A DNA stretch of 64,000 nt from a virus: IMG/VR virus record IMGVR_UViG_3300012943_000031, positions 32,001 through 96,000 of that record; one strand, 5' to 3'. Below are positions 16,821 through 19,372 of the stretch, piece by piece (positions within the stretch are counted from its first letter, which is position 1; each line of letters starts with the position of its first letter). The notes beneath the pieces were generated by a model. That model worked only from the letters and a program-made list of their open reading frames with translations. It was not told where the DNA came from and did no database searches. The position numbers and the translations under genes were made by a program.

Positions 16821-16997
16821 ATGGTAATGAAAGGTAAAAATAAACTAGAAAGAATGGAATTACGTGCTGCTAAAAGATTTAACAGACGTTCTAAGAAAAT
16901 AAAATTCCATCTTACTAATGATTGGAGTTGGACATTTCCTATCCCTAAAGAGGGAATTCCAAAAATAGTTGAAGAAATATTTGGAAACGGCAAATAA
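16821..16997 (+). CDS. Small basic hypothetical protein
   Basis: 3' part of ORF 16737..16997 outside the tRNA; ATG at 16821 or 16827. Confidence 0.4.
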   Translation: MVMKGKNKLERMELRAAKRFNRRSKKIKFHLTNDWSWTFPIPKEGIPKIVEEIFGNGK

Positions 16998-17011
16998 ATG
17001 TCGTATCTTTG
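16980..17011 (+). promoter_or_regulatory. Bacteroidota sigma promoter P2 (tRNA operon 2)
   Basis: TTTG 16980 and TATCTTTG 17004, same spacing as P1. Confidence 0.85.
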
Positions 17012-17038
17012 TATTATAAAATTTAAAAGCAGCAAATA

Positions 17039-17113
17039 ATGTACTTAATAAATATGATAGTGGATAGAATTAATGGGGCAGAGAAATCTGGCTCTGGACT
17101 TCTATTGTCATAA
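17039..17113 (+). CDS. Attenuator leader peptide 2 (MYLINMIVDRINGAEKSGSGLLLS)
   Basis: Codons 4-16 (I,N,M,I,V,D,R-AGA,I,N,G,A,E,K) match operon-2 tRNAs; contains a 15-nt antiterminator arm. Confidence 0.85.
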   Translation: MYLINMIVDRINGAEKSGSGLLLS

Positions 17114-17140
17114 TCATAGTACTGATTACCAATATTTTAG

Positions 17141-17177
17141 AAGCCCAGAGCCTACGAAAGTTAGCTCTGGGTTTTTT
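17141..17177 (+). terminator. Attenuator terminator 2
   Basis: AAGCCCAGAGC...GCTCTGGGTTTTTT, 3 nt before tRNA-Lys. Confidence 0.9.
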
Positions 17178-17180
17178 AAT

Positions 17181-17253
17181 GCCCTTGTAGCAAACTGGTT
17201 GTAGGCAATAGTCTTTTAAACTATGGGGTCTGGTTCGATTCCAGACGGGGGTA
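17181..17253 (+). tRNA. trnK: tRNA-Lys(UUU)
   Basis: ATAGT-CTTTTAA-ACTAT; T arm TCTGG-TTCGATT-CCAGA. Confidence 0.88.
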
Positions 17254-17261
17254 CACAATAT

Positions 17262-17333
17262 GCAGGATTAATTCAATGGTAGAAATCCATCTTTACATGG
17301 TGGAAGCTGGGAGTTCGAGTCTCTCATCCTGTA
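17262..17333 (+). tRNA. trnV: tRNA-Val(UAC)
   Basis: CCATC-TTTACAT-GGTGG. Confidence 0.9.
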
Positions 17334-17339
17334 CAATAA

Positions 17340-17411
17340 CTCTCTATAGCACAATGGAAGTGTAACTGCCTTCTAAGCAGTTTGGTATAGGTTCGAATCC
17401 TATTAGAGAGT
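17340..17411 (+). tRNA. trnR: tRNA-Arg(UCU)
   Basis: ACTGC-CTTCTAA-GCAGT. Confidence 0.9.
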
Positions 17412-17456
17412 CAGGTCAGTTTTCCAATTCTGCGTGGAGTACAAAATTGGATATAT

Positions 17457-17528
17457 TCCTCATTAGCTCAATGGTAGAGCGCAAAGCTGTTAACTTTGGA
17501 GATTTAGGTTCGAGTCCTAAGTGGGGAG
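17457..17528 (+). tRNA. trnN: tRNA-Asn(GUU)
   Basis: CAAAG-CTGTTAA-CTTTG; G73. Confidence 0.92.
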
Positions 17529-17538
17529 CATAATTACA

Positions 17539-17613
17539 TGTAGGGTGGACTGGAGATGGTTCCAGCTTGGTCTCATAAGCCAAATGACAGGGGTTCGAAT
17601 CCCTTCCCTGCAT
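17539..17613 (+). tRNA. trnM: tRNA-Met(CAU), initiator-like
   Basis: TTGGT-CTCATAA-GCCAA; TGTAGGG/CCCTGCA acceptor; atypical D arm. Confidence 0.8.
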
Positions 17614-17619
17614 CTATAC

Positions 17620-17770
17620 TGTAAGGTGGTGAAATAGGCAGACACATCCACTTGTCTCGTGGACACAGATAAAGAAATAGATTAGGTATAATGGGGTTGA
17701 CCACTAATGTTTAACTTATTGTGTATCTAATTGAATCTCTGTATGAGTGGTTCAAATCCCTCCCTTACAG
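17620..17770 (+). ncRNA. tRNA-like RNA with ~80-nt variable region
   Basis: TGTAAGG/CCTTACA acceptor, class II-like D arm, TCCAC-TTGTCTC-GTGGA arm, long base-paired insert, GGTTCAAATCC T loop. Confidence 0.7.
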
Positions 17771-17776
17771 CAACAT

Positions 17777-17850
17777 TGCACATTAGCCAAGAGGTCTAAG
17801 GCATCACTCTCATAAGGTGACATTCATGAGTTCGAATCTCATATGTGCAA
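17777..17850 (+). tRNA. trnM: tRNA(CAU), elongator Met (or Ile2)
   Basis: TCACT-CTCATAA-GGTGA; TGCACAT/ATGTGCA acceptor. Confidence 0.88.
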
Positions 17851-17879
17851 CATTTGATAATTTTCCTTATATTTGTAAA

Positions 17880-18347
17880 ATGGAAAAGTATTTCAGAACA
17901 GAGCAAGGAGAAAGAGTAAATATAGTTGAACACACTTTGGAACAAATCCAGAAGTGGCCCAACCTAGAGATTTACATAGCAACAGACTCTCAAGACCAAG
18001 GTGGAAAGAGTAGATATGCTACAGTAATTGTCTACAGATATGGGAAAAGAGGTGCTCACTATATATACTTTAGAGAAGACGTACCACGTTGTAAGGACAT
18101 GTATACTCGTCTATATGATGAGGCTGTTCGTACAATTGATACAGCACAGTTAATAGACAGTGAGATACCTGTTAAGTTTGCCGGGTTAGAGTTTGACTAC
18201 AATAACCTACCAAGACATAACAGTAACAAATTACTCTCTTCTGTAAGAGGATGGGTAACAGGATTAAATTACAATGCTGTCTTCAAAGGTGATGAATTAG
18301 TAGCTGCAAAAGCTGCTGACCATGTTTGTAGACACAAGAATATATAA
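17880..18347 (+). CDS. RNase H-like YkuK/DUF458-family protein
   Basis: IYIATDSQ, YATVIV, RLYDEA, EFDYN, AAKAADH motifs; ATG17880 lies 4 nt after TATATTTG (17868). Confidence 0.8.
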   Translation: MEKYFRTEQGERVNIVEHTLEQIQKWPNLEIYIATDSQDQGGKSRYATVIVYRYGKRGAHYIYFREDVPRCKDMYTRLYDEAVRTIDTAQLIDSEIPVKFAGLEFDYNNLPRHNSNKLLSSVRGWVTGLNYNAVFKGDELVAAKAADHVCRHKNI

Positions 18348-18382
18348 GAGATGGATTGCAGCACTCTTTAAAATGCTGATTT

Positions 18383-18456
18383 GCAGAGGTAGTTAAATGG
18401 TATAATGCCTTCCTTCCAAGTAGGATTTGGGAGTTCGATTCTCCTCCTCTGCTCCA
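18383..18456 (+). tRNA. trnG: tRNA-Gly(UCC)
   Basis: Loop CTTCCAA; GCAGAGG/CCTCTGC; U73 CCA. Confidence 0.9.
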
Positions 18457-18457
18457 T

Positions 18458-18529
18458 GCATTAGTAGCTCAATGGTAGAGTACTACCTTGCCAAGGTAGG
18501 AGTTGACAGTTCGAATCTGTTCTAGTGCT
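18458..18529 (+). tRNA. trnG: tRNA-Gly(GCC)
   Basis: CTACC-TTGCCAA-GGTAG. Confidence 0.92.
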
Positions 18530-18535
18530 CAATAA

Positions 18536-18609
18536 CATGCTGTCATCTAATGGCTTAGGATAACGGACTTTCAATTCGTTCATGTCGGGTTCAATTCCCA
18601 CCAGCATGA
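18536..18609 (+). tRNA. trnE: tRNA-Glu(UUC)
   Basis: ACGGA-CTTTCAA-TTCGT; CATGCTG/CAGCATG. Confidence 0.88.
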
Positions 18610-18632
18610 CTAACAACTAAAGTCGAAGGACA

Positions 18633-19031
18633 ATGAGTAAACAAAGTAACCAAAAGAAGACTGAACAATTGGGTATGCCAATTGGTACAGCAAGTAATAG
18701 ATTGAGGAAATCAATTATCTTTAATCTGTTAAAGAAAGCAAATGAGAATTTCTGTTTCCAATGTGGAGCAGAAATAGAATTAGAGAATGAATTATCAATA
18801 GAACATAAGACTCCATATCTGGATTCTGAAGACCCACAAGGTCTGTTCTTTGATTTAGATAATATAGCTTTTTCTCACCTGTCATGCAATGTAGGTGCTG
18901 CAAGACAGACTCATAGAGTAAAGAATCATGGCCTGACTCTCTACAAAGATGGTTGTAGATGTGGTATTTGTGTGACAGCACAAAAAGAATCTTGGTCAAA
19001 ATATGATAAGAAGAGAAGAGTAAAAACGTAG
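18633..19031 (+). CDS. HNH endonuclease, free-standing in tRNA array
   Basis: CxxC...SIEH...N.AFSHLSCN; C-terminal HG..Y..GCRC..C. Confidence 0.8.
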   Translation: MSKQSNQKKTEQLGMPIGTASNRLRKSIIFNLLKKANENFCFQCGAEIELENELSIEHKTPYLDSEDPQGLFFDLDNIAFSHLSCNVGAARQTHRVKNHGLTLYKDGCRCGICVTAQKESWSKYDKKRRVKT

Positions 19032-19103
19032 GTGTAGTGTAACGGTTTAGCATATCTGCCTGTCACGCAGACGGTAGGAGTTCGAATCTCCCATCTACGG
19101 CCA
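19027..19103 (+). tRNA. trnD: tRNA-Asp(GUC)
   Basis: TCTGC-CTGTCAC-GCAGA; G73 CCA. Confidence 0.88.
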
Positions 19104-19105
19104 AT

Positions 19106-19178
19106 GTTGTTGTAGCTTAATGGTTAAAGCTCATGTCTTATACACATGTGAGTGAGAGTTCGAGTCTCTCCAACAACA
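19106..19178 (+). tRNA. trnI: tRNA-Ile(UAU)
   Basis: CATGT-CTTATAC-ACATG; fully paired stems. Confidence 0.88.
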
Positions 19179-19187
19179 CACAAATAT

Positions 19188-19262
19188 GTTGATATAGCTC
19201 AATGGTGGAGCACTTGTCTGATACACAAGAGGATGAAGGTTCGAGTCCCTCTATCAACACCA
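19188..19262 (+). tRNA. trnI: tRNA-Ile(GAU)
   Basis: CTTGT-CTGATAC-ACAAG; CCA. Confidence 0.9.
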
Positions 19263-19265
19263 TAT

Positions 19266-19338
19266 GGGGGTGAAGTTCTAGTGGATGAACACCTGTCTTG
19301 CACACAGGAAGTTGTGGATTCGAGTTTCACCACCTCCA
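19266..19338 (+). tRNA. trnA: tRNA-Ala(UGC)
   Basis: CCTGT-CTTGCAC-ACAGG; G3:U70 identity pair present. Confidence 0.9.
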
Positions 19339-19341
19339 CAT

Positions 19342-19372
19342 AACCTACTGATAATCAGTCAGTAGGTTTTTT
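19342..19372 (+). terminator. Intrinsic terminator ending tRNA operon 2
   Basis: AACCTACTGA...TCAGTAGGTT-TTTT. Confidence 0.88.

Follow-up and report, generated by a model that had tools for sequence, protein, structure and literature searches.

Transcription attenuation by leader peptides is known from amino-acid biosynthetic operons, such as ilvGMEDA of Escherichia coli and Salmonella, with Ile, Val, and Leu as regulatory amino acids of the leader, and the thr operon, with Thr and Ile; trpL, hisL, leuL, and pheL are further examples. The signal in these systems is the stalling of the translating ribosome for want of charged transfer RNA (tRNA). A component of the translation apparatus is controlled in a comparable way by the pheST attenuator of E. 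coli, whose pheM leader responds to the supply of charged tRNA-Phe. The control of tRNA gene expression in phages has hardly been described. Here, we describe an element termed attenuator 2, which lies in front of 13 tRNA genes (unit 2) in the IMG/VR virus record IMGVR_UViG_3300012943_000031. Positions 32,001 to 96,000 of this record, a stretch of 64,000 nucleotides (nt), are referred to as the window; all window features given below are on the plus strand and numbered from its first letter. Attenuator 2 probably controls a phage tRNA operon by ribosome-mediated transcription attenuation that depends on a leader peptide.

Codon compensation and the countering of defences that cleave tRNAs have been offered as reasons why phages carry tRNA genes (PMC10264068, PMC11464382). 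In Anabaena sp. PCC 7120, the trn operon represents a supernumerary tRNA array that is silent until translation is impaired (PMC8421152) and that is regulated at its promoter by a repressor (PMC8421152, PMC10272220). The array in our window comprises 28 tRNA genes (16048-21474), which span all 20 amino acids and include one tRNA with a cua anticodon. ARAGORN called 26 of them at default settings; Tyr(gua) required slightly relaxed settings and Ser(uga) lax ones.

Promoter, leader, and alternative structures of the proposed attenuator 2

Unit 2 is preceded by promoter P2 (16980-17011), which carries a TTTG element at -33 and a TAnnTTTG element at -7. We take this motif to be the -33/-7 promoter known from Bacteroidota, and both elements are found at the spacing usual for the primary σ factor of these bacteria. 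The pattern searched, which permits 17-23 nt between TTTG and the -7 box, matched ten times in the window compared to 3.05 expected matches. P2 has an extended form of the motif (TTTGGAA-N16-GTATMTTTG) that occurs at four sites in the whole 106.8-kb genome (15853, 16980, 19892, and 20650), each of them before a tRNA unit. Behind three of the four, a short open reading frame (ORF) and a strong hairpin with a T run precede the tRNA genes, and the fourth drives the cua tRNA directly. A database scan with the extended pattern and its N16 spacer matched 22 loci.

An A-rich stretch of 27 nt separates the end of P2 at 17011 from the ATG of leader ORF 2 at 17039. The leader (17039-17113) consists of 24 codons plus TAA. 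The first-pass annotation of this DNA had listed its codons 4-16 (17048-17086) as a run in which each codon is readable by a unit-2 tRNA, in which all ten amino acids of the unit appear, and in which both ATA and ATT are used. All of this was borne out when strict wobble rules were applied: the 13 tRNA genes located between 17181 and 19339 provide anticodons for all thirteen sensor codons, these codons specify A, D, E, G, I, K, M, N, R, V and no other amino acid, and they sample both Ile isoacceptors, ATA for Ile-uau and ATT for Ile-gau. By the same rules, the tRNAs of unit 1 decode none of the 24 codons of leader 2. The regulatory codons are thus concentrated in one place and matched to the genes behind them. 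A run of at least 13 unit-decodable codons that also holds all ten amino acids was obtained in 15 of 200,000 random peptides drawn from the phage codon usage (∼7.5e-5), and a search of the genome's 1,263 short ATG ORFs gave leader 2 as the only case. Since the unit-2 tRNAs read 57% of the phage's codons, a run of 13 alone is not extreme; if codons are drawn from the ten amino acids only, the chance of meeting all ten in 13 codons is ∼0.01.

The RNA of the leader can be divided into four regions. Region 1 (17053-17068) lies within the sensor codons and provides the 5' arm of an anti-antiterminator (1:2) in the full-length minimum-free-energy fold. Region 2 (17090-17110), near the end of the leader, pairs through 17098-17110 with region 1 and through 17090-17104 with region 3 (17138-17152), which is the 5' arm of the terminator and is common to the antiterminator. 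Region 4 (17164-17173) forms the 3' arm of the terminator, and the adjoining T run (17172-17177) ends 4 nt before tRNA-Lys. A complementarity of 14 out of 15 positions between 17090-17104 and 17138-17152 had been claimed in the first-pass annotation and is exact; only two of 20,000 random 15-mers of the genome have such a partner within 100 nt upstream (∼1e-4). The full-length leader folds with -47.3 kcal/mol (z = -5.6) into the hairpins 1:2 (17053-17068/17098-17110) and 3:4. The terminator hairpin by itself (17142-17173) reaches -19.2 kcal/mol, is followed by six T, and is located between the leader and the first gene of the unit, tRNA-Lys, which starts at 17181. The 2:3 helix forms when region 4 is omitted, or when region 1 is masked as it would be by a ribosome stalled with its A site at codons 6-12. 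As an isolated duplex, region 2 and the 5' arm of the terminator yield -24.2 kcal/mol compared to -11.4 ± 2.5 kcal/mol for dinucleotide shuffles, none of which (0/1,000) was as strong. The antiterminator hence makes use of the terminator's own 5' arm, with its other arm near the leader end, and the helices 1:2, 2:3, and 3:4 are mutually exclusive. The trp, his, and ilv attenuators have this topology of four regions.

The anatomy, the statistics, the alternative folds, and the conservation were computed, and from them we infer that the leader is translated, that transcription terminates, in which direction the system responds, and what triggers it physiologically. Host RNA polymerase would initiate at P2, and a ribosome would translate the 24-codon leader. 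If the aminoacyl-tRNAs for codons 4 to ∼13 are plentiful, the ribosome should move over region 2 and the 3:4 terminator would form. It should likewise form on an untranslated leader, in which region 1 would pair with region 2. Transcription would in either case stop at 17172-17177, just before tRNA-Lys. Scarcity of any one of the sampled tRNAs, on the other hand, would make the ribosome stall on region 1, leaving region 2 free to pair with region 3; this pairing would block the terminator and let the polymerase enter the 13 tRNA genes, from whose transcript RNase P and other processing enzymes would release the tRNAs. These would consequently be made on demand, whenever the codon usage of the phage exceeds the host pool or host tRNAs are degraded. 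Because the leader lists the amino acids of its own unit together with its own Arg isoacceptor codon, the feedback on the supply of the controlled tRNAs should be negative, and since the products are the sensed molecules, the loop would be homeostatic. Most likely, attenuator 2 would give demand-driven feedback on the tRNA supply of the phage.

Conservation and the match between leaders and tRNA units

Relatives were reached via an exonuclease-like gene located just 3' of the array, which led to L001 (IMG/VR), L035 and L037 (both from metagenomes), and the pair L031/L032. In L001, L035, and L037, the flanking protein is 37-59% identical, the order of the tRNA units is that of the window, and a homologue of attenuator 2 is present, with its ORF at 4884-4979 and terminator at 5001-5034 in L001, at 114-194 and 225-250 in L035, and at 6242-6325 and 6343-6380 in L037. 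Promoter motif and terminator are present in all four genomes, the P2-type motif being kept in L001 and L037 and more loosely in L035. The ATG is invariant, the frame is kept, and gaps in the coding part are multiples of three. All four genomes have in common the GGCTCYGG core of region 2, which is read as Gly-Ser-Gly. The 2:3 duplexes of the relatives amount to -20 to -24 kcal/mol, a strength reached by at most one of 1,000 shuffles, and the 1:2 anti-antiterminator overlaps the regulatory codons in the full-length folds of the window, L001, and L037. In L001, matched changes (T to C in region 2, A to G in region 3, and T to C in region 4) preserve both alternative helices. The sensor comprises 13-15 codons in all four cases and is restricted to the same ten amino acids, which come in a different order. 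A composition that is constant while the order varies indicates selection on composition and not on peptide sequence. A Glu-Lys pair followed by one spacer codon is likewise kept in all four genomes.

Searches elsewhere did not add to this set. A blastn search of GenBank phages with 15700-21600 returned tRNA-sized or HNH matches only and no relative, the terminator-pattern scan of IMG/VR hit only the contig of L001 and an unrelated high-GC contig (L061), and no relative was found among the genome contigs scanned with the flanking protein.

The other two leaders of the genome show the same relation to the tRNAs behind them. In leader 1 (15889-15978), 15 consecutive codons specify exactly the amino acids of unit 1 (Pro, Thr, Cys, Phe, Trp, Gln, His, and Arg), a type of run that did not occur in 200,000 random peptides. 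In leader 3 (20686-20733), nine Ser, Leu, or Tyr codons in a row precede a unit of Leu, Leu, Ser, Ser, and Tyr tRNAs. Taken together, the division of the 20 amino acids among the three leaders is exactly that among the three tRNA units. This division extends to the isoacceptors of Arg: the codon is AGA in all four copies of leader 2, with tRNA-Arg(ucu) in unit 2, and CGT, CGC, or CGA in the three copies of leader 1, with tRNA-Arg(acg) in unit 1, which points to the sensing of tRNA species rather than amino acids. In unit 3, tRNA-Ser(uga) (21207-21298) and tRNA-Tyr(gua) (21401-21474), which fill out the Leu/Ser/Tyr set behind leader 3, were called by ARAGORN only at the relaxed thresholds mentioned above, and both are missed by the Rfam tRNA model as well as by ARAGORN at default settings.

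We found further leaders on fragments of unrelated, much larger phages, the records of which are estimated to be 4-10% complete. In L057 and L060, the unit consists of Pro, Gln, Tyr, Thr, Lys, and Gly tRNAs, and the first 17 codons after the ATG are for those six amino acids only. A unit of Cys, Val, and Leu tRNAs in L028 is preceded by a ten-codon run of Leu, Val, and Cys, and a unit of Asp, Phe, Glu, and Ala tRNAs in L028 and L059 by a leader rich in Phe, Glu, Asp, and Ala that is interrupted by one Asn. When six leaders were scored against six units, each leader reached its top score with its own unit, and the true assignment was the single best of 720 permutations. As judged from these sequences, at least five further leader/unit pairs, which differ in their amino-acid sets, obey the rule that a leader spells the tRNAs behind it.

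Some additional loci were noted. In phiCbK (L065, JX100813, 46800-53200), a 45-codon ORF and a terminator (2741-2972) precede a block of Pro, Pro, Lys, Lys, three Leu, Ala, Ser, and Ser tRNAs; according to a partial check, 31 of the 44 post-ATG codons specify the five amino acids of the block. As a cultured phage of Caulobacter, phiCbK is a candidate experimental system. L031 and L032 have lost their arrays but for one tRNA-Cys, which stands behind a terminator and a Cys-rich leader containing five Cys codons; the antiterminator has a length of 8 bp. This device, located at 8468-8603 in L031 and at 8427-8560 in L032, is a reduced attenuator 1 and bears on attenuator 1, not on attenuator 2. A terminator of L058 located 130 nt before a tRNA block was dismissed, as it belongs to a GIY-YIG-type ORF and not to a leader. 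On the minus strand of L028 (∼4470-3400), ∼1 kb lacking an obvious ORF is situated between two tRNA-type promoters and tRNA-Gln and could represent a large structured RNA.

Alternative explanations and observations at odds with attenuation

The same attenuator hardware could serve a different signal, namely, general translational stress or amino-acid starvation, in which case the leader would just sample a large number of common codons and any slowdown of ribosomes would induce all tRNA units. Leader 2 taken alone is indeed the least specific of the three, as the amino acids of unit 2 account for 57% of the phage codons, and the leaders of L035 and L037 hold codons for which no matching tRNA was found in the unit. 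Moreover, the Anabaena trn operon, the only published inducible tRNA array, answers to general translational stress (PMC8421152). A signal of this kind would not lead one to expect, however, that three leaders partition the 20 amino acids as three units do, that Arg codons track the isoacceptor of the unit and not the amino acid, or that unrelated phages which group their tRNAs differently have correspondingly different leaders, and we therefore regard it as unlikely. It is very unlikely, in our opinion, that the hairpin acts as a constitutively leaky terminator setting a fixed low tRNA dose, or as a processing or stability element, with translation of the leader protecting the 5' end or blocking Rho without any codon-specific sensing. 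A terminator right behind a strong promoter is a known means of tuning output, and the terminator of L035 is weak (-14.2 kcal/mol), so that the 2:3 fold wins there even at full length. But such an arrangement leaves unexplained both the match of the leader to the amino acids of its own unit and the conserved helix that sequesters the 5' arm of the terminator and has undergone matched changes.

Alternatively, the hairpin might be the ordinary terminator of unit 1 and the 58-codon ORF behind it, with P2 restarting transcription and the short ORF and its composition being due to chance. No other terminator lies between tRNA-Arg (16794) and P2, and short ORFs are plentiful in AT-rich DNA, as the 1,263 of this genome illustrate. 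The hairpin is located 3' of P2, however, and would stop P2 transcripts before they reach any tRNA. Chance would also have to account for an ORF, a frame, a set of ten amino acids, and a complementarity of regions 2 and 3 that are kept in four diverged genomes, for the low probabilities of the codon run and of the 14/15 complement given above, and for the leader/unit rule being true of five other pairs; we consider this highly improbable. Hardly any credence is given to the remaining idea that the short ORF encodes a functional micropeptide whose location before tRNA genes is incidental. The Gly-Ser-Gly and the hydrophobic tail are conserved, and metal could be bound by a CxxC...CxC pattern in leader 1, but the residues of the leader-2 sensor are shuffled among the relatives while their composition is kept, and the conserved tail coincides with an RNA helix (GGCTCYGG is part of region 2), the opposite of what would be expected from a folded peptide.

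Several observations weigh against the reading of attenuator 2 as a ten-amino-acid sensor in control of the whole of unit 2. The Glu and Lys codons (15 and 16) are only 4-7 nt away from region 2, and with the A site at codon 15 or 16 a stalled ribosome would cover the GGCUCUGG core of region 2, which leaves the antiterminator at -10.8 kcal/mol compared to -19.2 kcal/mol for the terminator. As a ribosome at these codons would cover the 5' half of the antiterminator, Lys limitation may not raise readthrough, and the simple model may not provide for the sensing of Glu and Lys, two of the ten amino acids. The relatives show that leader content follows tRNA content imperfectly: we did not detect Met, Gly, Glu, and Asp tRNAs in the unit of L035 or an Ile tRNA in that of L037, and the leaders retain the respective codons. 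Moreover, the 1:2 helix is not part of the minimum-free-energy fold of L035. In the covariation shuffle test with only four sequences, 75-148 of 500 shuffles reached the observed values, but with so few sequences this test is without power. The design is not universal either, since the tRNA array of crAss001 stands behind a similar promoter and has no leader or terminator. Between tRNA-Arg (16794) of unit 1 and P2, a stretch that includes the 58-codon ORF (16821-16997), we found no terminator, and as unit 1 lacks one of its own before P2, the hairpin of attenuator 2 may also end P1 transcripts. Finally, the distal tRNAs of unit 2 could be expressed in a way that bypasses the attenuator, via a -7 box and two inserted ORFs. 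This box (TATATTTG, 17868-17875), which the first-pass annotation had pointed out as a possible separate start for these tRNAs, does exist and stands before an RNaseH_like ORF; the closest TTTG upstream of it is just 11 nt away compared to 20 nt in the four tRNA-unit promoters. Given the RNaseH_like and HNH ORFs and the -7 box, the distal tRNAs may be partly expressed independently. Of the attenuator that had been proposed in the first-pass annotation, then, all defining sequence features are present and are kept in three relatives, and it is the role of Lys limitation as an inducer that has become doubtful.

Surroundings of the proposed attenuator 2 and comparison with known systems

Unit 2 begins with the tRNAs Lys(uuu), Val(uac), Arg(ucu), Asn(guu), Met(cau), and Met(cau) (17181-17851, ARAGORN). 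The lone -7 box and the RNaseH_like ORF (PF04308, 17880-18347) are followed by Gly(ucc), Gly(gcc), and Glu(uuc) (18383-18610), an HNH endonuclease ORF (18633-19031), which is likely a mobile insertion, and Asp(guc), Ile(uau), Ile(gau), and Ala(ugc) (19027-19339). No strong terminator was found on the plus strand between 17178 and 19342, and the unit extends, as the first-pass annotation had it, to the intrinsic terminator at 19342-19374 (hairpin 19342-19368, then a T run), the next strong one on this strand. Between the two tRNA-Met genes, there is a tRNA-like element of 160 nt (17615-17776) with an acceptor-like closing helix of 8 bp and a T-loop-like 3' part; at lax settings, ARAGORN calls either Leu(uaa) or an intron-containing tRNA (intron of 74 nt) with the anticodon cua, and the element matched no Rfam family.

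Other elements of the array deserve mention. The amber-reading tRNA with the cua anticodon (19935-20007), driven by the fourth extended promoter, has neither leader nor terminator, and 3' of it lies an ORF for a PTH2 peptidyl-tRNA hydrolase (20036-20500). An enzyme that recycles peptidyl-tRNA would fit a genome dependent on stalling at mini-ORFs. Unit 3 contains a 226-nt element (20979-21204) between tRNA-Leu(uaa) and tRNA-Ser(uga) that aligns end to end with the Rfam model of archaeal RNase P RNA (28.1 bits, below the gathering score of 84; E = 1.7e-6 when 336 nt were searched) and has conserved motifs of the AGGAAA and the ACAGAA...GGUUA type. It may be a minimal phage-encoded RNase P RNA. 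A small Gly/Cys-rich ORF (15783-15830) just 5' of promoter P1 is kept in L001 (2473-2535). The virus record as a whole is a single contig of 106,836 bp with 36.5% G+C and encodes a large terminase subunit, a portal protein, and a major head protein and also contains ORFs of 3,156 and 2,076 codons. Its best DNA match among public sequencing runs is a soil metagenome, from which this DNA may originate, and no RNA run was among the matches listed. ATA accounts for 36% of the Ile codons of the phage, and its Arg codons are nearly all AGA, AGG, and CGT, a usage that fits a need for tRNAs of its own.

A more far-reaching and tentative idea, which we think is more doubtful than not, is that the three attenuators could form a codon-resolved surveillance circuit, in which each unit would detect the loss of any of its own tRNAs, caused, for instance, by anticodon nucleases of the host or by host shut-off, and re-supply that set only. 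Together with the amber-suppressor tRNA, PTH2, and the RNase P-like RNA of unit 3, this circuit might constitute a self-contained translation-rescue module.

If our interpretation is true, attenuator 2 would be without known precedent among attenuators in regulating tRNA genes, and its ten amino acids in 13 codons would make it more multivalent than any other known. Phages would gauge, one codon at a time, how well the infected cell can decode, and would replenish this capacity on demand. The small ORFs found in phage tRNA arrays would gain an explanation, leaders would allow functional groupings of tRNAs to be predicted, and attenuator elements would represent compact natural sensors of specific tRNA availability. 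The recurrence of this design in several phage lineages makes it accessible to experiments.

In full-text searches of openly accessible papers, we found no leader-peptide attenuation of tRNA genes, and the words attenuation, leader, and terminator are absent from the two reports on the Anabaena trn operon (PMC8421152, PMC10272220). This operon is the nearest published inducible tRNA array, with a repressor acting at the promoter there compared to an attenuator here. T-box riboswitches resemble attenuator 2 in sensing the state of a specific tRNA and in choosing between terminator and antiterminator, but they bind the uncharged tRNA directly via a specifier codon and the T-box motif, without translation; neither a T-box nor any other Rfam cis-regulatory family was found in 15500-22000 (E ≤ 1). 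The pheST attenuator differs in that it controls an aminoacyl-tRNA synthetase and senses a single amino acid. With the attenuators of amino-acid operons, attenuator 2 has in common a promoter followed by a short leader, regulatory codons in region 1, mutually exclusive 1:2, 2:3, and 3:4 helices, and a terminator before the first regulated gene. What follows, however, is not a trp, his, leu, thr, ilv, or phe operon but 13 tRNA genes, an RNaseH-like ORF, and an HNH ORF, and as the regulated genes are tRNAs, attenuator 2 would stand outside every family of amino-acid operon attenuators. Whereas the leaders of these operons carry runs for one to three amino acids, leader 2 has one to three codons for each of ten. 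It would regulate tRNAs instead of biosynthetic enzymes, so that the product feeds back on the sensed molecule itself, and it is phage-encoded, as one of three such elements that between them cover all 20 amino acids.

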